A program made the position numbers and the translations under genes. The notes beneath the pieces are model-generated. The model saw only the letters and a program-made list of their open reading frames with translations. It was not told the DNA's origin and did no database searches. Of a stretch of DNA of 64,000 nt, positions 5,530 to 52,400 are shown piece after piece; the stretch's first letter is position 1, and each line of letters starts with the position of its first letter. This DNA comes from Naegleria gruberi (taxonomy: Eukaryota): NCBI GenBank assembly GCA_000004985.1, contig GG738850.1. The stretch is one strand, 5' to 3'.

Positions 5530-6378
5530 ATGAGTGCTTTGTTTTGGGTTGAGTTCAAACAAACTTTACAAAAAAATGAAGCAACACACAATGATGAACA
5601 ATCTAAACAACATTCCAACGAGTTGAGAATGGATCATGACGATGCACTAAAGAGACTCAATGTTCAATCATTAGAAAAGTTAAAAATTGCCAATCAGCAA
5701 CATTCCGATCAGCAAATTAATGATGAAAATTCTTCATCGTTTATGATGGAAATTAATTCTGATCCTCATCAGGACGGAATTAAATTACAAATAATTAAAG
5801 GGAGTATTGTCGATCTGCCAATATATATCGATACTATTGTGAATGCTGCTAATGAAAGTTTGATGGGAGGAGGTGGAATTGATCAAATTATTCATGCTAG
5901 AGCTGGTGATGAGCTCAAATTGGAATGTAAAACTAAATATTCTCCATCTTGTCTGAAAATGAAAGGTTCCATTACCTATGGAAATGATGAATTGGAATAT
6001 AGATGTGCCACTGGAGAGGCTGTCATTACTCAAGCACATAATTTGAGTGAGAAATGTCAATATATTATTCATACAGTTGGACCATATTTGGATGAAAATG
6101 GAAATACTCAACCAGAACTATTATCAAACTGTTACAATTCATGTTTACAGTTAGCTATGGAAAATAATCTGAAATCTATTGCATTTCCTTGCATTAGTAC
6201 TGGATATTATGGTTATCCAATCGAAGAAGCTTGTAGACTAGCTCTAAAAATAGTCAAAAACTTTCTTCATTCACATCTGAATAAGCAATCATCTTTGAGG
6301 CATATCATTTTTGTAATTTTCAATGATTTGGAGTTTGAAATTTACAAAATTTTATTTCAAACCATTTCGTCTTTGTGA
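5530..6378 (+). CDS. Macro-domain (ADP-ribose-binding/processing) protein
   Basis: The C-terminal ~180 aa, IIKGSIVDLPIYIDTIVNAANESLMGGGGIDQIIHARAG ... IAFPCISTGYYGYP, carries the macro-domain signatures (NAAN, GGGGV/I, AIHRAAG-like, ISTG). The N-terminal ~95 aa is low complexity. Confidence 0.8.
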   Translation: MSALFWVEFKQTLQKNEATHNDEQSKQHSNELRMDHDDALKRLNVQSLEKLKIANQQHSDQQINDENSSSFMMEINSDPHQDGIKLQIIKGSIVDLPIYIDTIVNAANESLMGGGGIDQIIHARAGDELKLECKTKYSPSCLKMKGSITYGNDELEYRCATGEAVITQAHNLSEKCQYIIHTVGPYLDENGNTQPELLSNCYNSCLQLAMENNLKSIAFPCISTGYYGYPIEEACRLALKIVKNFLHSHLNKQSSLRHIIFVIFNDLEFEIYKILFQTISSL

Positions 6379-6697
6379 ACACACCAAAAACAGTAGCTGA
6401 GCATAACCAAATCAATTTAATTCAGAACAACTTCAAATGTAAGCCACAGATTGACACAGTCAAGTTAGATATTGGCTCAGACGATAAAAAAGAGGATGAA
6501 GAAATCATACTAGAAATAGCAATGTGGATATTTCCAAAAGTTTTTAAGAGAGTTACTTCTGGAATGTATTAAAATCGCTTATCCTGAGCTAGAACATATT
6601 GCCAAGTTCATTGAAAGTATTTCCAGTTTTCTGAAAGGAGGAAAAGGACATCTACCTGTTTGGTAAATTGAGGAGAAGAACAATACTGAATAATAAT

Positions 6698-7258
6698 TTA
6701 CAAATTGCTCAATCGAATTGTTCTAATCTTCTTTGTTTCCTCACTCTTGTTAATGATAATTCTCAAAACACCATTCTCCAATTGAGCTTTAACTTGTTCA
6801 AGGTTTGCTTGTTTTGGGAGATAGATACTCCTTTTGAATGATCCACTATTTCTTTCTCTAACAAGAATCTTGTCCCCACTGTTCTCCTGTTCAACCTTTC
6901 CACTTATTATCAATACCCGAACTTCCTCATCAATATTAATCTTTAAATTTTCCCTTTCCAACCCAGGAACATTACAAATTACTTTAAATTCCTTTGAATT
7001 CTCCACCACACCAAGAGCAGGTTTAAAGTAATGTTTCTCTTCTTGTGGTGTGCCTCCATTGAGAGAAGATGATTTGCTTACTCTCGGATCGAACAAGAGA
7101 AAATCAGAAAACAAGCCAGGAATACCATGAATTAAAATTCTTCTTTTCGGAGATGCTGATGTTCCTGTACTACAATCAGTGTTGTTAGAACAATTCTTTT
7201 CAGGAGTACTCTTGTTATTGTCTTGAGAAAAAGCCTTTCTTTCTTCTGCTTGGGTCAT
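6698..7258 (-). CDS. Small heat-shock protein (alpha-crystallin/Hsp20 domain)
   Basis: 186-aa ORF. The C-terminal half, KEFKVICNVPGLERENLKINIDEEVRVLIISGK ... SFKRSIYLPKQANLEQVKAQLENGVLRIIINK, fits the alpha-crystallin domain (GVLTV-like NGVLRI near the end). Confidence 0.6.
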   Translation of the reverse strand: MTQAEERKAFSQDNNKSTPEKNCSNNTDCSTGTSASPKRRILIHGIPGLFSDFLLFDPRVSKSSSLNGGTPQEEKHYFKPALGVVENSKEFKVICNVPGLERENLKINIDEEVRVLIISGKVEQENSGDKILVRERNSGSFKRSIYLPKQANLEQVKAQLENGVLRIIINKSEETKKIRTIRLSNL

Positions 7259-7547
7259 TTCGGTTTTTTTTAATCTTGTGCTTGGAAATTCCGAAACTCT
7301 ATTATGAAGAGAAATGTTGATGTGGAAATGTAGTAACTATCCATCTTTTAACAATTTCCATTAACATTTTAAAAATGTAACGGTTTTCCTACGCGTTTAT
7401 CTTCATATCTTGTTCATCCATCTCCGAAAATAATAATAATATTAAATTCAAAAAGGCTTAAATACATAAATTACAAACTCATATCGCTGCTATTGACTTC
7501 TTCCACTTTAGATAAGAGAATCATCAATAATCAAAGATTAGAAAAAA

Positions 7548-9149
7548 ATGCAAAACTCCAAGTCGAGGAGTTTCATCTCCGTCTTTGCTTTCATCTTGGT
7601 GATGACATTATTTACCAGCAGCAACAATCAAGTATTAGCCAATAATAATAATATTAAACTTGCTGGCTCACCAAAGCACGTCTATCAAGTTGGAGAACCT
7701 GAATTTTGGTTCCATCAACGTATCGATCACTTTAATGCATTGAACACTGATACTTTCCCACAACGTTATTACAAGTTTGTTCCGGAGGGAGTTTCAGCAT
7801 CATCACCTAATCACTTGTTGTACATTTGTCCTGAGGCTACTTGTGGAGGAACACCAAATAATTATGTGAAAAATTATGCTATGGAATTGAAGGCTACAAT
7901 TTATACTTTGGAACATCGTTTTTATGGTAAATCAGGTATGTTTTTCAATGATGATGATGATGATATATTAATTTATAATGTTGAATATTTATTAATTTAT
8001 TGGATAATATTGGAAATTTGATGAATGAATTAATGTGGAATAATGTGTGAAATTGTATGAATAATTGGAATAGTTCCTTACAAATCAATGAAGACTGTTA
8101 ATATGGCCAATTATTTAAAGACAGAAATGGCATTGGCTGACTTGTCAGTCTTTATTGAATATATTGCAACATTGCCATCAGATAATAATACTCCTCATCA
8201 ATTTATTATTGTTGGATGTAGTTATCCAGGTGCATTGAGTGCATTCTTCTCTATGAAATATCCACATCTTGTCAAGGGTGCCTTGTCATCATCTGGTGTT
8301 GTCAACTCTATTTTGGACTTTTATACTTTTGATATGCATGTTCAACAAGCTGCTGGTCCTGAATGTACTGCTCTCTTGACTCGTGCTACTTCTATTATGG
8401 AAAAGATGAATCCAACCAATTTGTTGAGAGATTTCCAAGCTCCAGCAGATATGGATATTAGAGATTTGTTCCTTCTTTTTGGTGATATTGCTGGTGAAAG
8501 CGTTCAATATGGATATCATTATGAATTGTGTAATGCCATGAAGAGTGGTAACACTAATTTGGATGAAGTTATTTATCAAAATTTCCACAATTATTCTCTT
8601 AATTTTTTCTACAAGGTATTCGAAACCTCACCATTGGATTATTACAATGGAGCTATTGGTAATGATAATTATGATCCTTCACAAGGAGCTAATGGTGGCA
8701 GATCTTGGTGGTTGCAAACCTGTTCTGAACTCTCCTATTTCAATACTGCCCCACCAAAGAATTTGCCATCCATTAGAAGTAGATGGTTGGATTTGGACTA
8801 TTTCTATGACAAGTGCAAAAAGATCTTTGGATATCCAATTAAACCAAACACTGACTTTGTCAATAACCAATATGGTGCCAAGCAATTGTTGAATACCACT
8901 ACAGGAAGAACTGTCTTTGTCAATGGTAGCCAAGATCCTTGGCTTAGAGCTGGTGTTGATATTGATCCAAAGAAATTCAGTTTCTTGATTGAATGCAACA
9001 ATTGTGGACATTGTGTTGACTTGAGAGGTTGTCCAAGTTGGGCTCAAAATCAAGAAATCAATTATAAGTGTGTTGAAAATGGTAATGAACAAGTTGCAAA
9101 GATTAGACAACAAACTTTAGCAATTATGAAAGTTTGGTTCCACATGTAA
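7548..9149 (+). CDS. Serine carboxypeptidase S28 family (Pro-X carboxypeptidase / DPP2-like), 2 exons
   Basis: Signal peptide present. S28 N-terminal motif FWFHQRIDHFN...FPQRYY, and the nucleophile motif GCSYPGALSAFFSMKYPHLVKGALSSSGVV (GxSYxG). Intron about 7936..8073 (GTATGT...AG, 138 nt) joins FYGKS|VPYKSMKTVNMANYLKTEMALADL, restoring the conserved S28 ...YL..E.ALADL segment. Exons: 7548..7935 and 8074..9149. Confidence 0.8.
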
Positions 9150-34825: not shown

Positions 34826-36478
34826 ATGATGAAACAAGTAATTGGAAGGAAAGCAACATTGTTGGTGTTGATTTTGGCTTTATGCACAATATTTGTTATG
34901 GGAAAGGAATCGAATAATGATCCAATTATTGGACTTTCTATCGGAAATACACACTGGAGAGCTGTCATTATTAGAAATGGTAATGTTGAATGGATTAGAG
35001 ATGGAGAAGGGCAGATTGAACACAAATCTTTTGAGAATATTAACAAAATAATAGGAAAAAATTACAAATCCATTCAATTTAAAGATCCATACTTGTTGGA
35101 ATCGAATAAGATTTTTGAAAGAAATGGAAAGGTTTATTGTAAATTTGATGTAGATGGAGTTGTGAAGGAAATGACACCAGAAGATATTTATTCAAACATT
35201 CTGCTTGATGTAAAGCAAGCAACTTTAGAATATTTAAATGAGAATATTACAAGAATCTACATTTCAGTTCCTGTTTATTTTGGTCCTGATCAAAGAAATG
35301 TTATTCGAAATGCTGCTTCAGAGCAAGGTTTAAAAATTGAAAGATTTCTTCTAGATCCAGTCAACACGGCAACATTCAATACCAAGGAATACGAATCAAA
35401 TAATTCAGCTAACATTCTAGTTGTGGACATGGGAAGAAAATCATTGGATGCAACTGTACTGAGTAGAAATAATAGCGTGTTTGAAGTTTACCAAGCTGAA
35501 TCGAATGGCCAATTGGGATCTGAAAAGTTTCATATGAAATTGAGAGATTTATTTGTTTCGAAATTTAAGAAACAACATGAATCATTAAGAGATGTGAATT
35601 TATTGGAAAATCAACAGGTGAATGACTTGTTAATGAGTCATGCTGAGATAGCAATGATAGCCCTCTCGAATGATTGTAAATATCATATTGTAATACCATC
35701 TCTCTATGAAGGAAAGGATTTCACATACACTCTAACTCGTGATTACTTTGAAAAACATTGTAAAGACCTTCTTGATGAAATTTCCAAGTTGATTTACAGC
35801 ATTATTACAGAGACAGTTTTTTACTTTGAGACTGTTGATTCGGTCATTCTCTCAGGTGACTCAACCAATAACCCGTTAATAAGGAAGTCAATTACTAATC
35901 GTTTTCCATTTTCCAAAGTTGTACATGGGCAAAATCCAGAGGTTGGTGCTGCTATTCAAGCTTACATGAGAAATCATCCTGAATCAAGTGTTCCGACTTT
36001 ATTTCTTGCGCCATTTTCCATTGGAATTGAAAATTCAGATCATCAATTGGTGAAGATTATTCAAAGGGGTGACTTGTTACCAACTGTGAAACGAGTAATC
36101 TTTTCAAATTTGGATGATTTTAGTGAATCTGCTCATTTGAAGATTTTCATTGGTGAATCTGTGGTTAATATTGGACCAAGGAATGTTCATATCGGTGATT
36201 TGATTCTGAAAGGAATTGAATTGACTGAGAGCGGGAATGCACAAATTCAAATTTCCTTTCAAATTGATGGAGAGTATAATCTCACAGTTACAGCTCTCGA
36301 TTTGAAAACCAACGCCAAGAGTGAAACTGTGATTTCTCTTCACAGTTTTGCCAATAATCTTGAACTAATTGATGAATTATTAGAGGATGGAATTCAAGAA
36401 GTCACAGATAATGTTAAAACTGAAAAGCTTATTTCCAGTTTCATCGTGGATCCAATTAAAAATCATGACGAATTTTAA
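34826..36478 (+). CDS. Hsp70-family ATPase, short STCH/HSPA13-like form with signal peptide (nucleotide-binding domain only, no canonical C-terminal substrate-binding domain)
   Basis: Signal peptide MMKQVIGRKATLLVLILALCTIFVMG. Actin-like ATPase motifs IIGLSIGNTHWRAVII (phosphate 1), ISVPVYFGPDQRNVIRNAASEQGLKIERFLLDPVNTA and VILSGDSTNNPLIRKSI (like GGSTRIP). Length is 550 aa. Confidence 0.7.
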   Translation: MMKQVIGRKATLLVLILALCTIFVMGKESNNDPIIGLSIGNTHWRAVIIRNGNVEWIRDGEGQIEHKSFENINKIIGKNYKSIQFKDPYLLESNKIFERNGKVYCKFDVDGVVKEMTPEDIYSNILLDVKQATLEYLNENITRIYISVPVYFGPDQRNVIRNAASEQGLKIERFLLDPVNTATFNTKEYESNNSANILVVDMGRKSLDATVLSRNNSVFEVYQAESNGQLGSEKFHMKLRDLFVSKFKKQHESLRDVNLLENQQVNDLLMSHAEIAMIALSNDCKYHIVIPSLYEGKDFTYTLTRDYFEKHCKDLLDEISKLIYSIITETVFYFETVDSVILSGDSTNNPLIRKSITNRFPFSKVVHGQNPEVGAAIQAYMRNHPESSVPTLFLAPFSIGIENSDHQLVKIIQRGDLLPTVKRVIFSNLDDFSESAHLKIFIGESVVNIGPRNVHIGDLILKGIELTESGNAQIQISFQIDGEYNLTVTALDLKTNAKSETVISLHSFANNLELIDELLEDGIQEVTDNVKTEKLISSFIVDPIKNHDEF

Positions 36479-38308: not shown

Positions 38309-38767
38309 TTATTGCTTTGGAGATTCGAGATGTTCAATAAGTGATTGAATTCCGCCACGATAGGCCGAGTGCACAATCTGAGTCAAATCCTCACTTCTCT
38401 CTGCAGGACAATTGAATCGAACACTCCACTCAAAGAAAGTTTGATTGGTGAGTGTAATTTCACTGACCTTGATGGTTGCTGTGTAGTTTTGCAGCTCAGC
38501 AAAGGCCCCACCAGCTTGCAATAGTTTGTAAGTAAAAGTGTGATTGATTTGATCAAGGGCTATTAATTCCTCCCTTGCTGGTGTTGAAACTCCTCGAATT
38601 TTGAGACAGCGAATGGAGCCAATGGTTTGTGGATTTACAGAATTCTCAATAGTGCTCTCTTCAACAACAGCTGACCATTTTGGGGAGCCATCGAATTGAC
38701 TAACGAGTGGCCACACAGTTGAGATGGAGGCTGGTAAGACACCTGATTCGTAGACTTGATAAGACAT
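38309..38767 (-). CDS. SRPBCC (Bet v1-like / polyketide-cyclase-like) ligand-binding-domain protein
   Basis: 152-aa ORF with the pattern W.LVSQFDGSPKW ... HTFTY ... NYTATIKV ... FEWSVRF, typical of small SRPBCC proteins; assignment by pattern only. Confidence 0.4.
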   Translation of the reverse strand: MSYQVYESGVLPASISTVWPLVSQFDGSPKWSAVVEESTIENSVNPQTIGSIRCLKIRGVSTPAREELIALDQINHTFTYKLLQAGGAFAELQNYTATIKVSEITLTNQTFFEWSVRFNCPAERSEDLTQIVHSAYRGGIQSLIEHLESPKQ

Positions 38768-38961: not shown

Positions 38962-41298
38962 TTAATTCTTTCTTCTCTTGTAAATTAATTCACTTCTCAT
39001 CAAATATTTAGTGCCACTCTTGAGAACTGAGCCATAGTGAAGAATATTGTGTGGGAAAATGATGCACAGACCTGGTTCTGGCTCAACGTGTCCCTTGATT
39101 TCAAATGGTGGTGCAGGTGGGAAGGTATGTGATTTGATAAATGTGGTTCTTCCCTCTTCATAATCACCATTGAGATAGAACATGAATGTGTAAAAACTAC
39201 GAGTATCACCATCGAGCTCAATACAACCATCATAGTGAGGAGCAAGGAAGTGTTGACCTGGTGTGTATTTGCAGAATCGCCATCTAGAATTGAGGAATGC
39301 CAAGTCCCAGGTATCTCCTGATTCTGGATCGACGTAAACTTGAGGAGCCATTGATTTTACTCTTTCGAATAGAATTTGTGCAGAAATCTTGTCTTCAACA
39401 ATGACTCTCTTATTAGATCTGTATTCCTTAGCATAACCATACAAATCCTCATAGCTTAATTTTTCTGTTTGCTCGATCAAGTGTTGACATTCTTCCTCAC
39501 TCAATAAATTATGAATCAGGTAACTGGTATTCTTGGTGAATTTGGTGCCAATTAATTTATCATCAAATATTCCCTCCAAGAATGTTACACATTGAATTGG
39601 TTTTCTCTCAGTGCATGGTTTGGCATGGTCAATGCTGAAATCTTTGAATATTTTCAGGTAGGCATGATTGGTGTGATCGTATTGCAAATCATCCGTTCCA
39701 AGTTCAAAATCTGAAGGATACTCCCATTCATATCTTGGACTAAATTTGACAAAAAAGATGGCAGAATCTGAGAGACCCAGCAAAAGAATTGACTGATCTG
39801 GAATCAACAACATGGAATTACATTGAGATCCACTACAATCCAACTCGACTGTTTCAGTTAAACTCAAAGAAGAACCACTCTTTCCAATGTAGAACAATCT
39901 CACTGTACAATCTCTGCATGAACAAATAAGCTTCTCTGGAGTGAGAACAATATTGGTGCATGAGCTTGGCAAGGATTCATTGTGTTGTAAAGAATGAATG
40001 CTCGATAATTTTCCATCCTCAAATCGTAATTTACAGGATATCACCTGTAATGTCTTGTCTTGGTAGGAAATGGAGATTATAAACTCTTCATCAGATCGTT
40101 GTGTTACCTCACAAGTTATCTTGACCCTTCCAGAATTGGATTGTTCCGCTATTAAATATTGTTTCCATGATTTGATATCTTCCATTGAATCTTCTTTACA
40201 ATAGCTCATTACCACTGAACCATTCATATCCACACTCAAGAGACATACCATTTCACCAAAATTCAAAACTCTCAAAGAATTATTAATTGGAGAAGTGTGC
40301 AAAGTTGACACTTTTCCTATCACTTCTCCATTCTCAATGTTGGAGATGCAAACAAATGAATCTAATCCACTCGTTGCTACCAACTTGCTACTCGATGTCA
40401 ATTTGACAATTTTTGCTATATTATAATTATGGAACTCGCTAATCGACTCTATTTGATGAATTCTTTCATACTTTTCATCAACCAATTTCCAAACATTCAA
40501 ATTATTGGAAGTTGAATTCACAACCCATTCAACATTGAAATGTTCAAAATCAGAAACCTTTGATTCAATACCAGATTTAGATTCATTCAATCCACTATGA
40601 ATGAAATATTTCACAACACCATCTGACGGATCAAAAACAATCAACGATGAATGAGACCCATCACTCTCATTACCACTCGAACATGACAAACACAAGTGTC
40701 TCTTTTCACATTGATCATTATGAGGAGAGATGGACATGACAACATCAGATTCTCCCACCACTTGCTGAGGTTCATAATCAAAAATCTTTAAAATCTTTCC
40801 CTCATCTCCACTATGAAAATCAATGGATTTCATTTGGAGAGTAGATCTCAAATCCCATTGACACAAACAAGCTTTCATATCACCAGAAAACAATGTTGGG
40901 ATGTTAATTGTTGTCTGCTTCTTCAATTTGGAGAAGCACATTGCTTGAACTGCTGACAAGTGTCCTTCCAGACATGTCAAATGATGTAAACCCTTCTTAT
41001 ATCTCTGCATTATTTGTAATTGTTGAATGAACAATCTCTTATAGCCCTTTTCATTGATAATCAAGTGAGAAGATTGCTTCAAAACTTGAGAATACTCCCT
41101 CTGACACAACTCCTTCCAAACCATCTCATCATTTCCCATGAATTTAGAGTAAATCTTCGGAGAGAGTAGGAAGAGAGAATTGATCCACTCCGTGGGCTCT
41201 ATCATGAGCATTAGCTCGGAGAGAATGGATGGTTCTTGTACCAATAGAGAAATCAAGTTCATAGTTGTTAGTTGAATTTGTGTTTTAAAATCTCTCAA
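38962..41298 (-). CDS. F-box-like / probable beta-propeller / C-terminal prolyl-4-hydroxylase-type 2OG-Fe(II) oxygenase fusion protein
   Basis: N-terminal F-box-like segment (LISLLVQEPSILSELMLMIEPTEWINSLF...EMVWKELC). C-terminal ~200 aa has P4H / 2OG-Fe(II) oxygenase features: HxD (PHYDG), a distal His (NILHYGS) and a basic residue (TKYLMRSELIYKR), plus FYLNGDYEEGRTTF (like the P4H FYLND..GG.T.F). Confidence 0.55.
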   Translation of the reverse strand: MRDFKTQIQLTTMNLISLLVQEPSILSELMLMIEPTEWINSLFLLSPKIYSKFMGNDEMVWKELCQREYSQVLKQSSHLIINEKGYKRLFIQQLQIMQRYKKGLHHLTCLEGHLSAVQAMCFSKLKKQTTINIPTLFSGDMKACLCQWDLRSTLQMKSIDFHSGDEGKILKIFDYEPQQVVGESDVVMSISPHNDQCEKRHLCLSCSSGNESDGSHSSLIVFDPSDGVVKYFIHSGLNESKSGIESKVSDFEHFNVEWVVNSTSNNLNVWKLVDEKYERIHQIESISEFHNYNIAKIVKLTSSSKLVATSGLDSFVCISNIENGEVIGKVSTLHTSPINNSLRVLNFGEMVCLLSVDMNGSVVMSYCKEDSMEDIKSWKQYLIAEQSNSGRVKITCEVTQRSDEEFIISISYQDKTLQVISCKLRFEDGKLSSIHSLQHNESLPSSCTNIVLTPEKLICSCRDCTVRLFYIGKSGSSLSLTETVELDCSGSQCNSMLLIPDQSILLLGLSDSAIFFVKFSPRYEWEYPSDFELGTDDLQYDHTNHAYLKIFKDFSIDHAKPCTERKPIQCVTFLEGIFDDKLIGTKFTKNTSYLIHNLLSEEECQHLIEQTEKLSYEDLYGYAKEYRSNKRVIVEDKISAQILFERVKSMAPQVYVDPESGDTWDLAFLNSRWRFCKYTPGQHFLAPHYDGCIELDGDTRSFYTFMFYLNGDYEEGRTTFIKSHTFPPAPPFEIKGHVEPEPGLCIIFPHNILHYGSVLKSGTKYLMRSELIYKRRKN

Positions 41299-43065: not shown

Positions 43066-44274
<1,209 letters not shown>

Positions 44275-44520: not shown

Positions 44521-45450
44521 TTAACCACCATAAAATCTATAAAGATATACCAATTTGGAATTACTGTCAATTTCCAATTCTTTCAATGTTTTAGCATATT
44601 CACTTAAAGGAATTAACTTTGATTTGTTAGCTATTACAACGTTTTGATCTGTTACACACAATCTATCTTCTAATCTATTGATAAACATTTCAAACGTATC
44701 ATTTGGATTCATATAAACTTTCATTTTCTTTCTAATTAATGATTCGATAGTCAGTTCAATTGAGCTGACTTGTGGGGAAAATTTGGAAATTTCCTCATTT
44801 TTCAACAAATCTTCACCAACAAATCTGAAAGCATTTGGATCTTGATTCAAAGCTGTCAACACAATTTCCCTGTCATTCTTGAGAGATTCTCCAACAAATT
44901 CCAATAATAATCCAGAGTGTCTCACAATTTCCAATATAAAACGTCTATCATTCAATAAATCTTGATTGGAAACAAATTGAATAGCTCGTGGATCACATTT
45001 AACAGCAACTCTGCAAATTTCCTCATCTTCTCTCATCTCAACACTCAAATTTTTAAATAGAATCCAATTTTTCTGAACTAATTCCTTGTTAACTACTTTG
45101 GGATCTCTTATTTTCAATCTTTTCTCAAATTCATCATGTAAAATAGCTTGAGAAATTAGTTCAGTGTCATTTCTCAAACTTTTGTGTAAATATTCGAAAC
45201 CTTTACTTCCATACTTGTTAATAACAGCAAGAGCCACCTCCCGATCTAAACTAAAATCGAATGGTTTCCGACTCGGAATGAAGGGCACATTCGAATTTCG
45301 CATCTGATTTATAACCATCAATTTTCTAGAGAGCTGATTTAATCGTTCCTTTGATTTCTGTAGCATTTCAATTCTAATAGATTGTAGTAATGGATCATCA
45401 TTATTACTGACAAAGTCTATGAGTAAAATTGTTACACAGTGTTCTTGCAT
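44521..45450 (-). CDS. DUF4116-like repeat protein with a C-terminal ubiquitin-like (beta-grasp) domain ending in Gly-Gly
   Basis: Three or four ~35-aa repeats of the form LRNDTELISQAILHD / MREDEEICRVAVKCDPRAIQFVS / LKNDREIVLTALNQDPNAFRFVGEDL. The last ~70 aa, MKVYMNPNDTFEMFINRLEDRLCVTDQNVVIANKSKLIPLSEYAKTLKELEIDSNSKLVYLYRFYGG*, have ubiquitin-like spacing and the terminal GG immediately before the stop. Confidence 0.45.
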   Translation of the reverse strand: MQEHCVTILLIDFVSNNDDPLLQSIRIEMLQKSKERLNQLSRKLMVINQMRNSNVPFIPSRKPFDFSLDREVALAVINKYGSKGFEYLHKSLRNDTELISQAILHDEFEKRLKIRDPKVVNKELVQKNWILFKNLSVEMREDEEICRVAVKCDPRAIQFVSNQDLLNDRRFILEIVRHSGLLLEFVGESLKNDREIVLTALNQDPNAFRFVGEDLLKNEEISKFSPQVSSIELTIESLIRKKMKVYMNPNDTFEMFINRLEDRLCVTDQNVVIANKSKLIPLSEYAKTLKELEIDSNSKLVYLYRFYGG

Positions 45451-45506: not shown

Positions 45507-48500
45507 TTACTTTTTTCTACTGTCCTGCATTTCCCACTCACTATCCATTGGATTTTCCTCCAAATCAACTTCTCCAATCTTGACCAATTTCTTGGCAAAC
45601 TTTGGATTTAAAGCAAAATTCTTATATTGCATTTCAGGTTTAGGTTTTTCAATTTTAGTTTCTGGTTTAAGGCAACCAATTAGAATAAAGATACAACAAG
45701 TGAACATTAGAATGACTATCAAAACTGCCATGACAACAAGAGGGATCCATAGAATATCATTACCAGAGAATGTTTCAGGAAGAATAATTGGTTTAGCTTC
45801 TTCCACAATAATGATCTCTCCCCTTATTTCTAAAATACCTATCATTTGATTATCAAAACATGTGCAAACGCCTGTTGAGTTATCAGCCAGAGAAAATGAA
45901 CATGAAGGTGCATTAGTAATCTTTCCATCACTTAAAGTCTTGCATTCATATTTGTAAAAAACGTTTGAATTATTGTAGCCAACTTGTTCAGTAAGTGGAA
46001 TGAAAAACATGATAGGGGCTGTTAAGTTGTTCATATTTACCACTTGATTACTCGAGTTGACTATTGAAAGGAAAACAGTTGTTTTTGATTTGATGCTTGT
46101 TTTTGACTTGATAACTCGTTTAGGTTCTACAACCACAAACGAATCTGAATTGTATATTCCTTGATTATTAATGGAATATAATGAATAACTCCATGGTTTC
46201 ACGCTTGAGAGGGCAAGTTTTGGTAAAGTGACTTTTACACTCTGTGATGTAATATACATTTCTGAAAGCTCATCAGCAAAATGTCTATTTGAAGTAATGG
46301 TTGAATAACCAACATTGCTACTAGATGGCTCACTCCCTAATATCATATTTCTTTTGGATAATTCTGAAATGTAAGTTGAAAATTTCAAAAACTCAGAATC
46401 ATATTTCAAGTTGAATTCTAATTTGTTCACATTTTCGAACAATACTGAAATAAATCCTGACAGCAACTTTTCAACTCCATCTAAGAGTAAAATGTTCTTA
46501 TTTGAATAAGCTTCGCTCAAACATTTTTCAGAAGCATGAATCAAAAGCGACAATCTACCCTCATCTAGGGAGCTTACACTTTTAGAAAGTGAAAATGCTG
46601 AATAAATAAAGCTGGTGACAGATTCAGTAGTTAATGGATTAAGAGATTTTTCCCTTCCAACTTCTTCATTAGCCAAATTGGTTATAAAATCAAATTTAAG
46701 CTCCTCTATCAATGCATCAACATTTGAAGTGGAGGTAATTCTTTTTGTTGTTGAGTTTGACAATAGTTGGTCCTTAATCATTGTAACAATTGAGGTGATG
46801 GTTGCCGTGTTAAATACATTTTGAGAAAGAGTTTCTTCTTGCTTTTCCTGGATAGATCTTCTTGTCCAAGTCGAAATGAGGGATTTCAATTCTGTAATTT
46901 CACTAACAGTTGGTGGAATAATGGCGACACTGGTTTTGACAATCATATCAGTGTCGGTATCATGATCTACAATCTTAATATAGAGATCTAAGGTTCCAGA
47001 ATTTGATACTGGTAAATATTGAGACATTGATTTGTTTGATGATTGAGCAGAGCTGGAGGCTATTGGGATATTCAAACCTGAATAATTATCAATAAAACCA
47101 TATTCAAAATCAAAGGAGGGTTCTGTTTCACAATTTGGACATCTAAAAGAAAATTCTGTGCTAAGAGCATAACCAAGAGAAGGGGTTACTGAACATTCAC
47201 ACAGCTTTGGGAATTTCACAACCCTGAATTGATAAGACAAAGTTGAAGATAACCAACTAGATTCATCATCCACTCTTAGAGTGAGAATATAAACGCCTTC
47301 ATCCATATATTGAGTATCTATAATAATAGAGTTTGAGATAGACAATGGATTTCTCATTTTCTTTAGCAATGCTTGATCTATTTTAGTCCCATTAATCCTC
47401 CAAATTCTTTGAACGCGATTGATATCTTCAACTCCTTGAATTCCAACTTGAAGATTTAAAATCTCACCCTTTTTTACACTCTTTGGGTTCACAGAGCTGT
47501 AGAGAAGATTAATGACTGGTGGAATGCCAAACTTTGAATCTAAAGGGAAATTAATTTGTAAAGAGGAGGAGACATTCCTAAAACCTTTCACCACATTAAG
47601 GTTTATATCTATAGGAGCATTCCAAAAGCTTTGATTGTCTGGCTTGAAAATGGTTACATAGTTTGGTTCAGAATTGAAATTTAACAGAGAAGAACAAGTG
47701 TCCCCGTTCATAAAACAAGACCATAACATCTGTTCCTTCTCTGTTGTGTGGTCATTGTCAGTGAGGGAATATGCAAGAACGTATTTTGTCGAGGAGGCTT
47801 CTACTGCGAATAATTGCAAATCCAACTCTGAAATTCTAGTTTGAATGTTAAAGGTTGATGTAAATTTAGATGTTAAATACTCATTCATCGAGTTAAATTC
47901 AATTGAAAATGAATAGAGAGAATCCATCAGTGTAGAATATCTTGAAATAACCAAGTTGTTATAGTTATTTACAGAGAATGTTAGAGGAGGCCCATCTACC
48001 TTGGCATAGCTTGTAGTATAGGTAAAGTTAGAGGATACACAATTTGGATTGATTGTCTTTTTGAATACAATCGGTAAATCACTCACACTAACAACTTTGG
48101 AACCAATGAATACAGGAGGTTGTGGATCCGAGTTCATATCAAATGTGAAGGTAGTTTCACTTTCTGTTTTGAATAAGGTACTTTTCACTTTCAGTTTGAA
48201 AATGTGAACACCTCTGGAGTAGTCATTGAATTTGAAGAAGACAGTCTTAGCACCATTATTGTTGGCTTTCTGGAGGATAGTGTTAATCTTTGAATCTAAA
48301 GAGATAACACTCCACTCAAAAATGACAGGCTTTACATCTCTACTATAACTCTTCGATCCATCCAGAATGAAATCATCACATAATGAGTGTTTCTCTATTC
48401 TCACAGTAGGTGCCAATGGGGATGATGGAGGACTAACATTCATTTCAACAAAGGAGCCATTTGAATTCTCTCCTAGTACTTCCACATTGATATATAGGAT

Positions 48501-51500
48501 GCCCCCTAGTCTTAATGTAAAATCTTCACCAAGATTAATATAAAAGGTGCTATTTTTCCATTCACAAGACGGGAGAGTTCCTAAAAGCTCATTATTCAGA
48601 ACCACTTTTTTACAATCCACATAGTAAAGAGAAGGAAAAAATCCATTAGTTTCTAGGGAAATCTTATCGCCATTGTCTGAGAATTTCAAACCTGATTTAA
48701 AGCTCAACTGGCATTTGGCACCAAAATAGTTTTCCAAACAAGTCTCGCATTTAGTTCCTTTCCAAAATCCATTTTTCTGGTTCGAATAACATATACATGT
48801 TCCATTCATTTGGCATTCACCATGATAGGAACAAGATGAAGGTGAACTACATGGTGTTGTTTTACATTCTTCTCCAAAATAAGGATGCATGCATTGATCA
48901 CATTTATCTCCACTCCAGTATCCCTTAATATCATCTTGATAACAGGAGCAAGAATTCAGTTGTTTACATTCTCCATGACGACTGCAGACACTAGTATTTG
49001 AATACTCAATACCAAAGCAATAAAAGTTTTTACATTCTTTACCATAGAAACCATCTCTGCATTCACAAATATCAGGAGATTTACAATAGCCTTGACTTGA
49101 ACAAACATTATAACTCTGTGAAGATTTTCCATAACAGTTGAACAGATTGCATTCAGCTCCATAAAACCCTTCTTTGCAAGAACAATTATTTGGAGAAGTA
49201 CATATTCCATTTGATGAGCATACATTTTCACTGGCGAAATCTATGCTAAAGCAGGAATAATTGCTGCACGTTAATCCTTCATATCCATTTTCGCATTTGC
49301 ACAAGTTTGGGGCAATACATTCTCCATTTGAATGACAAGTTCCTGGATCATTATTTGAAATATTAAAACAATCAAATTGTTCACATTCATCACCGTAGTG
49401 ACCTATGTTGCAGGAACAATTGTTAGGACCTGCACAGGACCCGTTTGAAGAGCAAGCTATGGAATCATTCCTTTCAATCCCAAAACAGGAGAAGTCAGAG
49501 CAATCAACACCAAAGTAACCACTAGTTGTACAATTACATACATCCCTTGAGACGCAATCACCATTACCTGAACAAACATTGGTATTATTATTCAAAACTC
49601 CAAAGCAGTAGAAATTTTCACACCTATCTCCAAAGAAGTCAGAGAAACAATCACACTCATTTGGTTTGATGCACACTCCATTTCCTGAGCAGACCTCCTG
49701 GCTTGTATTCACAACCCCAAAACATGACGCAAATTCACAACTATCACCACTGAAACCATCAAAACAGGAGCAATTATTGTAATCAAAACATTGCCCTAAT
49801 GAAGAACATGCTAAGGAATGGTTTGAGGGATATCCAAAACATGTAAATTCATCACATTTTTCTGAAAGATATCCTTCAAAGCATAAACACTCATCACTAG
49901 AGACACATTTACCATTCCCACTGCAAACATTTGAGCTATTAGAAGAGTAACCATAACAATCGAAAAGAGAACATTCCAGTCCATGATATCCATCATCGCA
50001 TGAACAGTTATTAGGTCCTAAACACATTCCGTTTGAGGAACATACAGATGTCTCTGTTTCATTCTTTCCAAAGCATTCAAAGTGTTCACAATTATTGCCA
50101 TAAAAACCTTCCAAACATGAACAGTTACCTGGGGATACGCATAGACCATTAGATGAACATACAGCTGTTGAATTGTTTTCCAATGAGAAACAGGTAAACT
50201 TTTCACATTGGTTTCCATAATAACCTTCATAACAAGTGCAGTTGTTTGGTGAGGAACAAAGACCATTTCTTGAACAGGAATCCACTGTTGAACTCTCAAT
50301 CCCAAAACAATCATAAAAAGTACACTCTAAACCATAATATCCACTGAAACATGTGCAATTATTTGGGGAATGGCAATCACCATTTGAAGAGCAAACTGAA
50401 CAGTCCGTTTCATTCTTTCCAAAACATTGATGGTACTGACAATTATTTCCAAAATATCCTTCTTCACAAGTGCAGTTATTTGGAGAGTTACACTCACCTC
50501 TCGAAGTACAGACTAAGGTTGAATTGTGTTCAATGTTAAAACATTGATACATGTTGCACTCTATTCCATAGTATCCTTGATGACAGGAACAATTATTATA
50601 AGAAGAACAACAGCCATTATACGAGCATACTTCCTCTCTTGAATGCTCAATACCAAAACAATCGAATAATGAGCAATCCGTTCCATAGTATACTCCTTCA
50701 CAGGAACAATTATTTGGACTTGAGCAAATACCATTCCCAAAGCAAACACTGGAGTTATCTTTCCTTATTCCATGACAATTAAAATATTGACACATATCTC
50801 CATAGTAATTGGGACTACATGAACAATTATTGACAGTCACACACAACCCTCTCCCACTGCAGACTCCCGAAAAGTTAGCAGGAATATTGAAGCATTTAGG
50901 TATTTCACAACTACTTCCTATCCAAGAATCATTGCATGAGCAGGAATTAGGAGAGGAGCAATTACCATGATTGCTGCACACTCCGCTCTCTCCATTGGTT
51001 TTACCAAAACAAACAGGAGAACTACAATCTTTTCCTGTCCACATTGTAAAATCTGAACATGTACAATTATTAGGAGACACGCATGTTCCGTGTCCAGAGC
51101 AAGTTGCTGGGAGGTCTTTTTCAATTGAGTAACAATAGTAATTTTGGCAAAGGTTTCCACTATAGCCATTTGAGCAATCACAATGGTCAATGTAAGAGCA
51201 AACTCCAAACGAAGAGCAAACAGTTGAATTATTCCATAAAACTCCACCACAGCTGGTATGGGTCAATTTTCTAACTCTAAAATTCGAAGTATCTGCAATG
51301 AAAACTTCATTAGAAATATTTGAATACGAAATTGAGTAAACTGAATCAATTTGAGCAGACAGAGAATCTGTTCCATCACCCACACTCCCTGAATTCCTTG
51401 CAGATCCAGCAATTGTTCGTATAATTCCATTTGAATAAACCTTCCTTATTACATAATTATCACTGTCAGAAATAAGCATTTCACCTGCTGATGTAAAGGC

Positions 51501-52400
51501 TATTGATGTTGGACTGCTTAATTGAGCTTGTTTAGCTTGACCTCCATCTCCTAAATATCCACTCACACCTGTACCAACAACTGTGATAATCTTGTTATCT
51601 AATCCAACCTTTCTAATAACATTATTGCCAGTGTCAGCAATAAACAACTCGCCCGTTGTTGGTGATATGGCAACATCGTTAGGGCTGTTGAGTTTAGCAC
51701 TTGTGGCAACACCATTATCTCCACCATATCCTAACAGAGAACAAGTGCCTGCAGCTACACTCACAACCGTTCCACTAATTTTACCAATACAATGATAGGT
51801 ATAATCTGAAAAGTATAAGACTCCACTCGAAGAAACTGCCAATCCCAATACTTGACCAATAGTAGAACTGGTTGCAGTTCCTTCAGTCAAAGCTCCTTTT
51901 GTTCCTTTTCCAATAACTGTGGAAATAATTTGATTCGTTGATATCTTTCTAATTCTATAATTTAGAGAATCACCCAAATACAAAGTCCCGTCTCCACTAT
52001 AAAAAGCCAAAGCTTGAGGTTTGTTGAGCTTGGCAGATGTCGCTACACCATTATCACCAAAATACCCTCCTGAAGATCCAGTTCCTGCTATTGTTTTGAT
52101 AATTCCATTCGATACTTTCCTTATTCTGTGATATGTTTTATCGGCAATGTACAAATCTCCATTCGATCCTACTTCAATAGCATCTACATAACCAATTGAA
52201 GCATGACTAGGGGATACACCATCTCCAGAATTTCCCTCATTACCATCCCCAACATAGGAGGTGATAGTAAATCGCTCGATTTGATCTGTGACTACTACAC
52301 CATTAAGGCTATTCAATATGATTAATATTAATATAACAATATACATCACTCGGCTATTACGGATTATTGTACAACCATCCGATCCTTTTGACTTCATCAT
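45507..52400 (-). CDS. Giant type-I membrane protein: signal peptide, ~6 NHL repeats, ~25 tandem EGF/tenascin-type Cys repeats, ~1000-aa Cys-poor extracellular region, single TM, short cytoplasmic tail
   Basis: Single 2297-aa ORF. NHL-like YIADKTYHRIRKV, LYLGDSLNYRIRKI, FIADTGNNVIRKV, LISDSDNYVIRKV, FIADTSNFRVRKL. Repeated CxGxGxCxSPNNCxCxxGYxGxxC units from about aa 390 to 1150. TM is ILWIPLVVMAVLIVILMFTCCIFILIGCL near the C-terminus. Confidence 0.7.
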   Translation of the reverse strand: MMKSKGSDGCTIIRNSRVMYIVILILIILNSLNGVVVTDQIERFTITSYVGDGNEGNSGDGVSPSHASIGYVDAIEVGSNGDLYIADKTYHRIRKVSNGIIKTIAGTGSSGGYFGDNGVATSAKLNKPQALAFYSGDGTLYLGDSLNYRIRKISTNQIISTVIGKGTKGALTEGTATSSTIGQVLGLAVSSSGVLYFSDYTYHCIGKISGTVVSVAAGTCSLLGYGGDNGVATSAKLNSPNDVAISPTTGELFIADTGNNVIRKVGLDNKIITVVGTGVSGYLGDGGQAKQAQLSSPTSIAFTSAGEMLISDSDNYVIRKVYSNGIIRTIAGSARNSGSVGDGTDSLSAQIDSVYSISYSNISNEVFIADTSNFRVRKLTHTSCGGVLWNNSTVCSSFGVCSYIDHCDCSNGYSGNLCQNYYCYSIEKDLPATCSGHGTCVSPNNCTCSDFTMWTGKDCSSPVCFGKTNGESGVCSNHGNCSSPNSCSCNDSWIGSSCEIPKCFNIPANFSGVCSGRGLCVTVNNCSCSPNYYGDMCQYFNCHGIRKDNSSVCFGNGICSSPNNCSCEGVYYGTDCSLFDCFGIEHSREEVCSYNGCCSSYNNCSCHQGYYGIECNMYQCFNIEHNSTLVCTSRGECNSPNNCTCEEGYFGNNCQYHQCFGKNETDCSVCSSNGDCHSPNNCTCFSGYYGLECTFYDCFGIESSTVDSCSRNGLCSSPNNCTCYEGYYGNQCEKFTCFSLENNSTAVCSSNGLCVSPGNCSCLEGFYGNNCEHFECFGKNETETSVCSSNGMCLGPNNCSCDDGYHGLECSLFDCYGYSSNSSNVCSGNGKCVSSDECLCFEGYLSEKCDEFTCFGYPSNHSLACSSLGQCFDYNNCSCFDGFSGDSCEFASCFGVVNTSQEVCSGNGVCIKPNECDCFSDFFGDRCENFYCFGVLNNNTNVCSGNGDCVSRDVCNCTTSGYFGVDCSDFSCFGIERNDSIACSSNGSCAGPNNCSCNIGHYGDECEQFDCFNISNNDPGTCHSNGECIAPNLCKCENGYEGLTCSNYSCFSIDFASENVCSSNGICTSPNNCSCKEGFYGAECNLFNCYGKSSQSYNVCSSQGYCKSPDICECRDGFYGKECKNFYCFGIEYSNTSVCSRHGECKQLNSCSCYQDDIKGYWSGDKCDQCMHPYFGEECKTTPCSSPSSCSYHGECQMNGTCICYSNQKNGFWKGTKCETCLENYFGAKCQLSFKSGLKFSDNGDKISLETNGFFPSLYYVDCKKVVLNNELLGTLPSCEWKNSTFYINLGEDFTLRLGGILYINVEVLGENSNGSFVEMNVSPPSSPLAPTVRIEKHSLCDDFILDGSKSYSRDVKPVIFEWSVISLDSKINTILQKANNNGAKTVFFKFNDYSRGVHIFKLKVKSTLFKTESETTFTFDMNSDPQPPVFIGSKVVSVSDLPIVFKKTINPNCVSSNFTYTTSYAKVDGPPLTFSVNNYNNLVISRYSTLMDSLYSFSIEFNSMNEYLTSKFTSTFNIQTRISELDLQLFAVEASSTKYVLAYSLTDNDHTTEKEQMLWSCFMNGDTCSSLLNFNSEPNYVTIFKPDNQSFWNAPIDINLNVVKGFRNVSSSLQINFPLDSKFGIPPVINLLYSSVNPKSVKKGEILNLQVGIQGVEDINRVQRIWRINGTKIDQALLKKMRNPLSISNSIIIDTQYMDEGVYILTLRVDDESSWLSSTLSYQFRVVKFPKLCECSVTPSLGYALSTEFSFRCPNCETEPSFDFEYGFIDNYSGLNIPIASSSAQSSNKSMSQYLPVSNSGTLDLYIKIVDHDTDTDMIVKTSVAIIPPTVSEITELKSLISTWTRRSIQEKQEETLSQNVFNTATITSIVTMIKDQLLSNSTTKRITSTSNVDALIEELKFDFITNLANEEVGREKSLNPLTTESVTSFIYSAFSLSKSVSSLDEGRLSLLIHASEKCLSEAYSNKNILLLDGVEKLLSGFISVLFENVNKLEFNLKYDSEFLKFSTYISELSKRNMILGSEPSSSNVGYSTITSNRHFADELSEMYITSQSVKVTLPKLALSSVKPWSYSLYSINNQGIYNSDSFVVVEPKRVIKSKTSIKSKTTVFLSIVNSSNQVVNMNNLTAPIMFFIPLTEQVGYNNSNVFYKYECKTLSDGKITNAPSCSFSLADNSTGVCTCFDNQMIGILEIRGEIIIVEEAKPIILPETFSGNDILWIPLVVMAVLIVILMFTCCIFILIGCLKPETKIEKPKPEMQYKNFALNPKFAKKLVKIGEVDLEENPMDSEWEMQDSRKK

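Follow-up and report, generated by a model that had tools for sequence, protein, structure and literature searches.

Several known proteins join an F-box to an Fe(II)/2OG oxygenase on one chain. Human KDM2A and KDM2B (FBXL11 and FBXL10) carry both in a single polypeptide (PMC5746411), and F-box fusions of the JMJD6 family are on record (PMC2938197). In Dictyostelium, the F-box and JmjC oxygenase protein JcdI (Fbxo13) associates with Skp1, and it is an active dioxygenase with a physiological O2 dependence, conserved across protists (PMC9485057). Thus the pairing of an F-box with an oxygenase, which the initial annotation of the locus studied here had called unusual, has precedents. To our knowledge, F-box proteins with their own 2OG oxygenase have so far been known only with JmjC domains (KDM2A/B, JcdI), and we know of prolyl hydroxylation being linked to cullin-RING ligases, as it is in the HIF and Skp1 systems, only in trans.

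Here, we describe a gene of Naegleria gruberi whose product pairs an F-box-like region with a prolyl 4-hydroxylase (P4H)-type oxygenase and a WD40 propeller, which is the new part of the combination; our literature search found nothing on an F-box/WD40/P4H architecture. With a probability of about 0.55, we read the protein as an FBXW-type F-box protein that carries an enzyme: its N-terminal divergent F-box is followed by a helical linker, then by a WD40 propeller of eight blades, and last by a P4H-class oxygenase.

A single-exon gene with faulty gene models

The uninterrupted open reading frame (ORF) reported by the initial annotation is present at exactly 38962..41298 on the minus strand of the window (by which we mean the whole 64-kb stretch of DNA analyzed), and it has 778 codons, opening with a TTG at 41298. 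The first ATG, at 41262 (MNLISLL...), gives a protein of 766 aa and is the likely start codon of the gene. With a G+C content of 31-38% per 2-kb bin in the window, a run of 778 codons without a stop is very unlikely to arise by chance; and homologues in other genomes cover the N. gruberi protein over its whole length. This is a real gene and not a chance ORF. The coordinates of its features are collected in Table 1.

The public gene models for this family contain errors in three species: those of N. gruberi and Acrasis kona are truncated, and that of N. lovaniensis is split, an intron of 86 nt being predicted in this species. The N. gruberi model in NCBI (P0001, "2OG-Fe(II) oxygenase family protein") begins at 41139 (MGNDEM), without the first 41 residues, and the N-terminal stretch that it leaves out is conserved in N. 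lovaniensis and Willaertia. We also considered whether the fusion itself could be a gene-model artifact, and we reject this: the ORF is unbroken in N. gruberi and likewise in Willaertia magna, where the homologue is a single exon of 776 aa. As for genomic context, the downstream neighbor in N. gruberi differs from that in N. lovaniensis, and no SCF-related gene adjoins the gene in the window.

Table 1. Features of the F-box-like/WD40/P4H gene of N. gruberi; residues are numbered from the first ATG.
Feature	Coordinates	Strand	Remarks
Complete single-exon CDS from the first ATG, 766 aa + stop	38962..41262	-	
Divergent F-box-like region, residues 8-58	41089..41241	-	orthologue Pfam matches and family profiles
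Helical linker from F-box-like region to propeller, residues 59-92 (KGYKRLFIQQLQIMQRYKKGL)	40987..41088	-	
Eight-bladed WD40 beta-propeller, residues 93-507	39742..40986	-	
Inter-domain segment, residues 508-578	39529..39741	-	conserved 'YD...H.Y' motif
P4H-class 2OG/Fe(II) oxygenase domain (double-stranded beta-helix), residues 579-766	38965..39528	-	
Codons of H676-Y-D678, proximal iron ligands ('APHYDG')	39229..39237	-	invariant in the 7-sequence alignment A2
Codons from H742 (distal iron ligand, 'ILHYG') to K752	39007..39039	-	both invariant in A2 and A3

The C-terminal domain is a P4H-type oxygenase

The assignment of the C-terminal domain to the P4H-type oxygenases, as proposed in the initial annotation, is firm. 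The Pfam model PF13640 (2OG-FeII_Oxy_3) scores 27.8 bits on the full-length protein and 30 bits on the domain alone (cut-off 27), and it matches all 31 members of our family alignment A3. A profile of the family finds the solved P4Hs with E-values between 2.8e-14 and 6e-6, led by the B. anthracis (2.8e-14), Chlamydomonas (2.6e-8), and PBCV-1 (6e-8) enzymes. The AF2 model of the domain has a pLDDT of 92.4, and its Foldseek neighbors in the PDB, among the 50 matches listed, are prolyl hydroxylases almost throughout (vCPH, BaP4H, Cr-P4H, PPHD, PHD2, P4H-TM, and DdPhyA), the exceptions being PiuC, the putative oxygenase 3dkq, and PolD. No JmjC or cupin Pfam model matches the whole protein at E<=10.

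The HxD...H motif and the basic 2OG-binding residue that had been claimed for this domain correspond to H676, D678, H742, and K752, all of them invariant in the seven homologues of alignment A2. K752 ('TKYLMRS') lies ten residues past the distal histidine, its counterpart in B. anthracis P4H is the Lys of 'GEKWI', and it is the predicted binder of the 2OG C5-carboxylate. The active site formed by HxD...H and Lys is intact, and the oxygenase appears to be catalytically intact. Of the P4H-like motif described in the initial annotation, the part FYLNGDYEEGRTTF is present; the remainder, 'GG.T.F', describes the family consensus but not this protein, which reads EGRTTF.

The oxygenase family at large has 3436 representatives at E<=0.001, and most of the best 150 are proteins of 170-350 aa. 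Those few members whose source is named are protists, and there is no characterized member of the sub-family among the retrieved sequences.

An FBXW-like linker and propeller

The middle of the protein, for which a beta-propeller had been suggested, is indeed one: repeated four-stranded blades close into an eight-bladed WD40 propeller, interrupted by a low-confidence insertion at residues about 167-186. Directly in front of it, and C-terminal to the F-box-like region, is a helical linker (AF2 helices 66-72 and 74-90), which is the arrangement that defines the FBXW subclass. The counterpart of the linker in FBXW7 is 'WKSAYIRQHRIDTNWRRGEL', and the profile alignment to the FBXW7 chains 2ovp, 5v4b, and 7t1y spans the linker into blade 1. 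Using hhalign, the pre-propeller linker also matches the same segment of P0160, a Met30-like F-box/WD40 protein (E 0.0016).

Is the N-terminal region an F-box?

Residues ~8-58 (VQEPSILSELMLMIEPTEWINSLFLLSPKIYSKFMGNDEMVWKELCQREY) show F-box-type spacing of helices and hydrophobic positions and a trailing 'lWkel' motif, the region ending in 'VWKELCQREY'. The AF2 model is helical at H11-20, H23-30, H35-42, and the start of H46-63, helices that we take as candidate F-box helices; the model confidence is low over residues 1-92, with pLDDT about 50-67 in the F-box-like region.

The initial annotation had claimed an F-box here and named lack of HMM support as grounds for giving the claim up. For the N. 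gruberi protein itself, no Pfam F-box model matches at E<=10, either with the full-length protein or with the N-terminus alone. The sole result for the isolated N-terminus is Gcn1_N, a spurious match, and the family consensus sequence likewise has no F-box match in Pfam, only Gcn1_N. What keeps the claim alive comes from the orthologues, the family profiles, and the FBXW-like linker and propeller. At the aligned position, the N-terminus of P0006 matches PF12937 with 24.6 bits, above the cut-off of 24.3 (E 2e-5), that of P0005 matches PF00646 with 19.5 bits for a cut-off of 20.5 (E 9e-4), and that of P0008 matches PF12937 at E 0.01. The P0007 and N. lovaniensis N-termini have no Pfam F-box match, and that of P0008 scores slightly higher against TFIID_NTD2, which is also helical and also precedes WD40 repeats.

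In F-boxes, helix 1 opens with a Leu-Pro that is highly conserved but not universal. Most members of this family lack it: at that position, N. gruberi has 'QEPSIL', Willaertia 'SLDSKL', P0006 'KLSDNNL', P0007 'RLEETLL', and P0008 'NMNQTIL'.

Single-sequence phmmer searches of the PDB give only marginal matches, and profiles are needed. We compared two profiles with 177,635 PDB sequences. The N-terminal family profile A1 finds FBXW7 (E 0.0037) and FBXO3 (0.04), as well as FBXW12/19/21/24, and its alignment to FBXW7 covers the F-box and the linker and extends into blade 1. For the F-box-only profile A4, 7 of 11 matches are to F-box proteins, and in every one of these the alignment falls on the F-box (FBXO3 residues 8-58, FBXO31 residues 15-65, FBXW proteins about 9-50), at individually weak E-values of 0.027-2.3. 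There are no TAF5-like chains among the PDB matches of either profile. When the comparison is made by hhalign against the one Met30-like protein P0160, the F-box is unmatched (probability 2%), a single-sequence target being too weak. Altogether, the identity of the N-terminus as an F-box is supported only indirectly, through relatives and profiles.

One conserved polypeptide in Heterolobosea

Besides the domain architecture and the HxD...H + Lys active site, the analysis shows that the whole fusion is kept on one chain across several Heterolobosea as well as environmental eukaryotes. Fused proteins are present in Naegleria, Willaertia, Acrasis, and environmental eukaryotes; four homologues aligned over their full length have the same domain order, and two further ones are C-terminal fragments of the same layout. 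In a neighbor-joining tree built from 154 oxygenase domains, those of the fused proteins group into a single clade of 12 members, which suggests a single origin. Among the fused homologues, identity is highest in the oxygenase domain (48-74%) and lowest at the N-terminus (16-34%); and in the inter-domain segment, Y528, D529, and Y535 are invariant.

Word-indexed homologue searches are nearly blind to this family, with 2, 1, and 14 matches and with generic WD40 proteins crowding the last set, and the family was recovered only by exhaustive HMMER search. An NCBIfam scan gave nothing useful.

What could the protein do?

The likely role that we infer is that of a Skp1-docked, WD40-targeted protein hydroxylase. 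Through its N-terminal helices, the protein would bind to Skp1 in the manner of Fbw7 and Cdc4, the propeller would pick out a protein partner, and the oxygenase, using O2 and 2OG, would hydroxylate that partner or a neighboring SCF component, most likely at a proline. Target hydroxylation would then be physically coupled to the SCF/Skp1 complex, and as a result the target could be ubiquitinated, or the enzyme turned over. Docking on Skp1 need not imply substrate ubiquitination, because in JcdI the O2-related phenotype needed the dioxygenase activity and the F-box was dispensable for it (PMC9485057).

How else could one interpret this arrangement? The propeller alone might bring the P4H domain to its substrate, in a WD40-targeted hydroxylase with no SCF link, whose N-terminal helices would be a decayed F-box or an unrelated propeller cap that does not bind Skp1. 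This is on the unlikely side. In its favor are the missing Pfam F-box match in N. gruberi and N. lovaniensis, the missing Leu-Pro motif, the low conservation and low AF2 confidence of the N-terminus, the consensus sequence that matches no F-box, and the competing TFIID_NTD2 match in P0008. Against it, F-box models match three orthologues at the corresponding position, with one score above cut-off, and what the two profiles retrieve from the PDB includes F-box proteins, aligned by their F-boxes, but not a single TAF5-like chain. Also, the linker and eight-bladed propeller are most like those of Fbw7/Cdc4. That same resemblance bears on a proposal in which the F-box is functional and controls the enzyme itself, by Skp1-dependent stabilization or SCF-dependent turnover: a full FBXW layout, with a large conserved eight-bladed propeller like those of the degron-binders Fbw7 and Cdc4, has the look of a substrate receptor, and we consider such self-control improbable, although the observations fit both readings. 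It has been suggested for JcdI, where the O2 effect requires the dioxygenase and not the F-box, where the F-box may mediate reduced JcdI levels, and with the remark that some F-box proteins may be substrates rather than receptors (PMC9485057).

The protein could also be a PhyA-like hydroxylase docked by its F-box in order to hydroxylate the C-terminal proline of Skp1, as an alternative route to the Skp1 hydroxyproline known in Dictyostelium and Toxoplasma. The Skp1 prolyl hydroxylation pathway does exist in several protist groups (PMC9485057, PMC11570480), and the oxygenase is of the P4H class. The initial annotation was reminded of the Skp1 prolyl-hydroxylation pathway of amoebae and apicomplexans; the domain itself is not PhyA/EGLN-like: the family profile reaches DdPhyA (6t8m) at E 0.009, compared with 2.8e-14 for the B. 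anthracis enzyme, it has no PHD2 match at E<=1, and the 2OG binder is a Lys and not an Arg. Moreover, a 415-residue propeller would be superfluous for hydroxylating Skp1, and we found no literature that ties Naegleria to a Skp1 hydroxylation pathway. We regard this proposal as very improbable.

Within our preferred reading of a Skp1-docked, WD40-targeted hydroxylase there is a bolder version, a single-chain "write-and-read" O2 switch. Here, a target would have a proline hydroxylated by the P4H domain while held by the WD40 propeller, or would be recognized by the propeller afterwards, and the F-box would deliver the hydroxylated target to the SCF for ubiquitination. This version is quite doubtful. 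If true, it would put the logic of PHD2 and VHL acting on HIF into one SCF receptor, evolved independently in Heterolobosea.

The layout is common to a small group of amoeboflagellates, and it may couple the O2-dependent hydroxylation of proteins to the ubiquitin ligase system. A conserved fusion of F-box, WD40, and P4H parts would amount to a natural experiment, with a hydroxylase that depends on O2, Fe, and 2OG wired permanently to a receptor of SCF type. Such a fusion would be a tractable way to protein hydroxylation substrates other than collagen and HIF, and to oxygen sensing in free-living amoeboflagellates, among which are relatives of the pathogen N. fowleri. It is also a first functional clue for an uncharacterized P4H-like family of mostly small proteins.

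Comparison with known systems

By fold and by profile, the nearest solved relatives of the oxygenase are the P4Hs of B. anthracis (5hv0/3itq), Chlamydomonas (Cr-P4H-1, 2jig/3gze), and PBCV-1 (vCPH, 5c5t), with profile E-values from 2.8e-14 to 6e-8 and Foldseek E-values of 1.5e-8 to 1e-7 among the 50 matches listed. Like the Naegleria domain, they have the HxD...H triad and a Lys ten residues past the distal His. On the other hand, identity to them is only about 17-22% and the TM-scores are 0.5-0.6, and the Naegleria domain belongs to a separate family. Unlike the collagen-type and bacterial P4Hs, it is fused to F-box-like and WD40 parts, and the protein has no sign of a secretory signal or of a collagen-like substrate.

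PhyA and PHD2/EGLN1 belong to the same P4H fold class (Foldseek 2e-7 for PHD2 and 2e-6 for DdPhyA), and both tie prolyl hydroxylation and O2 to cullin-RING ligases. They differ in the profile distances given above and in that they are free-standing and act in trans, without F-box or WD40. PHD2 uses an Arg as its 2OG binder.

JcdI, the JMJD6-family fusions, and KDM2A/B have in common with the Naegleria protein an F-box or F-box-like region and an Fe(II)/2OG oxygenase on one chain, but their oxygenases are of JmjC type where that of Naegleria is of P4H type, and in KDM2A/B, the F-box is paired with LRRs and not with WD40 repeats. Since no JmjC model matches it, the Naegleria protein is an analogue and not a member of this F-box/JmjC group.

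The layout of the first two thirds of the protein is that of FBXW7 and Cdc4: F-box-like helices, a helical linker ending in '...RYKKGL..LEGH', and an eight-bladed WD40 propeller, in the same order. FBXW7 is the best profile match of the Naegleria N-terminus, and FBXW7/Cdc4 are among the top structural matches, with the longest alignments. Identity to them is just 13-18%, and they have canonical F-boxes (LPxE) that Pfam recognizes, in contrast to the Naegleria F-box-like region. Another difference is at the other end: FBXW7 and Cdc4 stop after the propeller, without an enzyme domain, and the Naegleria protein carries its oxygenase there.

The gene and its start codon

The open reading frame of the initial annotation is present in this nuclear DNA of Naegleria gruberi exactly as described there, and its product is 100% identical to P0001, the NCBI model "2OG-Fe(II) oxygenase family protein [Naegleria gruberi]" (725 aa). 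With a G+C content of 31-38% per 2-kb bin in the window, an open frame of 778 codons would be very unlikely to arise by chance. Residues are numbered on the product that begins at the earliest ATG. P0001 starts at an internal methionine (MGNDEM) 41 residues downstream of it (minus strand, 41139-41262). The 41 residues that it omits are conserved and cover the N-terminal half of the F-box-like region. Because the skipped stretch is kept in the N. lovaniensis protein (PTEWINSLFLLSPKIYSKF vs. PSDWLQSLFLLSSKIYEPF, 50% identity over 167 residues) and is also found in longer homologues, the NCBI start is probably too far downstream. The protein is already in the databases as a generic oxygenase, truncated at its N-terminus and without F-box annotation.

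Features of the fused gene and of other loci in the window
Feature	Position	Strand	Remarks
Open reading frame	38962-41298	minus	778 codons, counted from TTG
Earliest ATG	41262	minus	MNLISLL...; product 766 aa
F-box-like region and linker	40987-41241	minus	residues about 8-92; all-helical prediction
WD40 propeller	39742-40986	minus	residues 93-507
Inter-domain motif YD...H.Y(L/K)xPP	about 39643-39681	minus	residues 528-540; between propeller and oxygenase; conserved
2OG/Fe(II) oxygenase domain	38965-39528	minus	residues 579-766
SRPBCC/Polyketide_cyc2 protein	38309-38767	minus	152 aa, E 2.5e-16; immediate downstream neighbour
Divergent Hsp70-family protein	34826-36478	plus	550 aa; hydrophobic N-terminus; PF00012, E 2e-60
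Two ORFs, one resembling the propeptide half and the other the catalytic half of a cathepsin L-like cysteine protease (papain family)	43066-43458 and 43726-44274	plus	judged from translation only
Protein built of DUF4116 repeats	44521-45450	minus	309 aa
2297-aa ORF	45507-52400	minus	teneurin-like NHL, many EGF repeats, REJ domain

As for the other loci, the downstream SRPBCC neighbour shows no synteny with the N. lovaniensis locus, a probable intron lies between the two putative cysteine protease ORFs, and the 2297-aa ORF encodes a giant protein resembling a surface receptor, here in an amoeboflagellate.

An intact oxygenase of the P4H class

The C-terminal domain is an intact P4H-class 2OG/Fe(II) oxygenase, as had been proposed. 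Against Pfam PF13640 (2OG-FeII_Oxy_3), the full-length protein scores 27.8 bits and the isolated domain 30 bits, above the curated cut-off of 27 bits. The active-site residues H676-x-D678, H742, and K752 are unchanged in 7/7 fused homologues, and K752, ten residues past the distal His, aligns with the Lys of Bacillus anthracis P4H. AF2 models the domain with confidence (pLDDT 92.4, pTM 0.88), and almost all of the 50 Foldseek matches listed for it in the PDB are prolyl hydroxylases (E 1.5e-8 to 4e-6, TM 0.47-0.59), the exceptions being PiuC, the putative oxygenase 3dkq, and PolD. Given this fold class, we infer peptidyl-proline as the likely substrate.

Searching 1.84 billion representatives exhaustively with HMMER gives 3436 proteins at E<=0.001, and in nearly all of them the match is to the oxygenase domain alone; most among the best 150 are 170-350 aa long. 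Relatives with a named source are few and all protist (Acrasis, Gocevia, Ploeotia, MMETSP transcripts). A profile of 31 family sequences matches solved prolyl 4-hydroxylases from B. anthracis (2.8e-14), Chlamydomonas (2.6e-8), the virus PBCV-1 (6.3e-8), and human P4H-TM (6.3e-6), whereas it is weak on Dictyostelium PhyA (0.009) and Pseudomonas PPHD (0.019), and has no match to PHD2 in the PDB at E<=1. A link to PhyA is therefore not supported: the domain represents a separate, uncharacterised sub-family rather than a PhyA/EGLN orthologue.

Other members of this sub-family carry TPR or MIT modules, and the domain seems to be repeatedly joined to protein-interaction modules. Four members are also matched by the poxvirus C4/C10 family model, Pox_C4_C10, at a best E of 4.5e-6.

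The propeller and the F-box-like N-terminus

The middle region, for which a beta-propeller had been considered possible, can be firmly assigned as one. The full-length AF2 model, built on the alignment of seven fused homologues (mean pLDDT 76.9), has 32 beta-strands within residues 94-506, mostly at pLDDT 80-92, which make eight four-stranded blades. Pfam WD40-type matches are weak in N. gruberi (Prp19 and THOC3 propellers 4e-6 to 1.5e-5, PF00400 0.033), and PF00400 is strong in the orthologues (1e-9 to 4e-25). Pro-Pro or Thr-Pro closes the inter-domain motif in every fused homologue apart from that of N. gruberi, which has KIF. Some stand-alone family members, P0013 among them, carry similar motifs N-terminally.

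The F-box is the least secure assignment, being indirect and derived from the orthologues. The N. gruberi sequence itself has no Pfam F-box match even at E<=10, full-length or N-terminus alone, and lacks the canonical Leu-Pro; AF2 is of low confidence there, though all helical. F-box models do not match the family consensus sequence, hhalign to a single Met30-like F-box gives a probability of 2%, and in the environmental homologue P0008 TFIID_NTD2 scores slightly better than F-box.

On the other side, several independent kinds of comparison agree in pointing to an F-box. The N-terminus of the environmental homologue P0006 reaches 24.6 bits with PF12937 at the aligned position (cut-off 24.3, E 2e-5; PF00646 E 0.0023), with Willaertia P0005 at 19.5 bits for PF00646 (cut-off 20.5, E 9e-4) and P0008 at E 0.01 for PF12937; these matches are weaker when scanned in full-length context. 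A six-sequence profile over the N-terminal 110-140 residues matches FBXW7 in the PDB (E 0.0037) in an alignment that spans the F-box, the linker ('WKSAYIRQHRIDTNWRRGEL' vs. 'KGYKRLFIQQLQIMQRYKKGL'), and into blade 1; it also matches FBXO3 and mouse FBXW12/19/21/24. A profile of the F-box alone, searched against 177,635 distinct PDB sequences at E<=10, has F-box proteins as 7/11 of its matches, each aligned at its own F-box and individually weak (E 0.027-2.3). Since F-box proteins are a tiny share of PDB sequences, this enrichment is not chance. The longest Foldseek superpositions are with F-box/WD40 receptors (Cdc4 538-543 columns, TMq 0.40-0.43; Fbw7 512-516; beta-TrCP 488-523; mouse FBXW proteins about 528-542; most other matches 414-489), consistent with the modelled N-terminal helices also being matched. 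We put the probability that the N-terminus is homologous to an F-box at about 0.75, and lean only slightly towards its functional binding of Skp1.

Conservation and origin of the fusion

The fusion is real and conserved. Willaertia magna has the same layout in one single-exon gene (KAL9653265.1, 776 aa), and three environmental eukaryotic contigs carry fused versions of 686-782 aa. The oxygenase is the most conserved part (48-74% identity), above the propeller (19-46%) and the N-terminus (16-34%). In N. lovaniensis the gene is divided between two annotated models of 204 and 582 aa (PYSW02000032.1:5342-5956 and 6001-7749), whose ORFs differ in frame. Removing a GT...AG interval of 86 nt (5904-5989) would join them in frame, and the split probably reflects an intron missed in annotation or a frameshift in the assembly. 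The Acrasis kona protein KAL0481886.1 (277 aa, annotated 'PKHD-type hydroxylase') has its first residues ('YLMCSSADSSIIVMDFNP') within the final propeller blade and includes the inter-domain motif, so its gene is apparently the same fusion, modelled too short. A neighbour-joining tree built from 154 oxygenase domains groups all the fused proteins, and only these, in one 12-member clade; as it has no bootstrap, it suggests a single origin and does not prove one.

On one contig only (SRR32315890), the fused homologue P0007 is directly preceded by a same-strand gene (985-2100) with a HECT domain, which marks another type of ubiquitin ligase; this may be coincidence.

A probable mechanism

In the most likely mode of action, the N-terminal helices would bind Skp1 in the manner of Fbw7 and Cdc4, with the propeller picking a protein partner, and the P4H domain would use O2 and 2OG to hydroxylate that partner or a neighbouring component, thus coupling an oxygen- and metabolite-dependent modification to an SCF/Skp1 complex. 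The target might then be ubiquitinated, or the arrangement might set the level of the enzyme itself, which PMC9485057 proposed for JcdI; a Skp1 scaffold without a role in degradation is a third possible outcome. Skp1 itself is an unlikely substrate, because the oxygenase is not PhyA-like and a propeller would be superfluous for hydroxylating Skp1.

Comparison with known F-box oxygenases

We found no description in the literature of an F-box receptor with its own P4H-type oxygenase, and to that extent the combination is unusual, as initially annotated. For 2OG oxygenases generally it is not: JcdI/Fbxo13, conserved across protists, pairs an F-box with a JmjC dioxygenase in Dictyostelium and associates with Skp1 (PMC9485057), F-box fusions in the JMJD6 family were noted in 2010 (PMC2938197), and human KDM2A/B combine JmjC, F-box, and LRRs (PMC5746411). 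All of these are JmjC oxygenases, whereas the N. gruberi protein has no JmjC domain by Pfam, and so stands outside the F-box/JmjC families. Its layout agrees with the FBXW class, and its catalytic domain with the P4H class.
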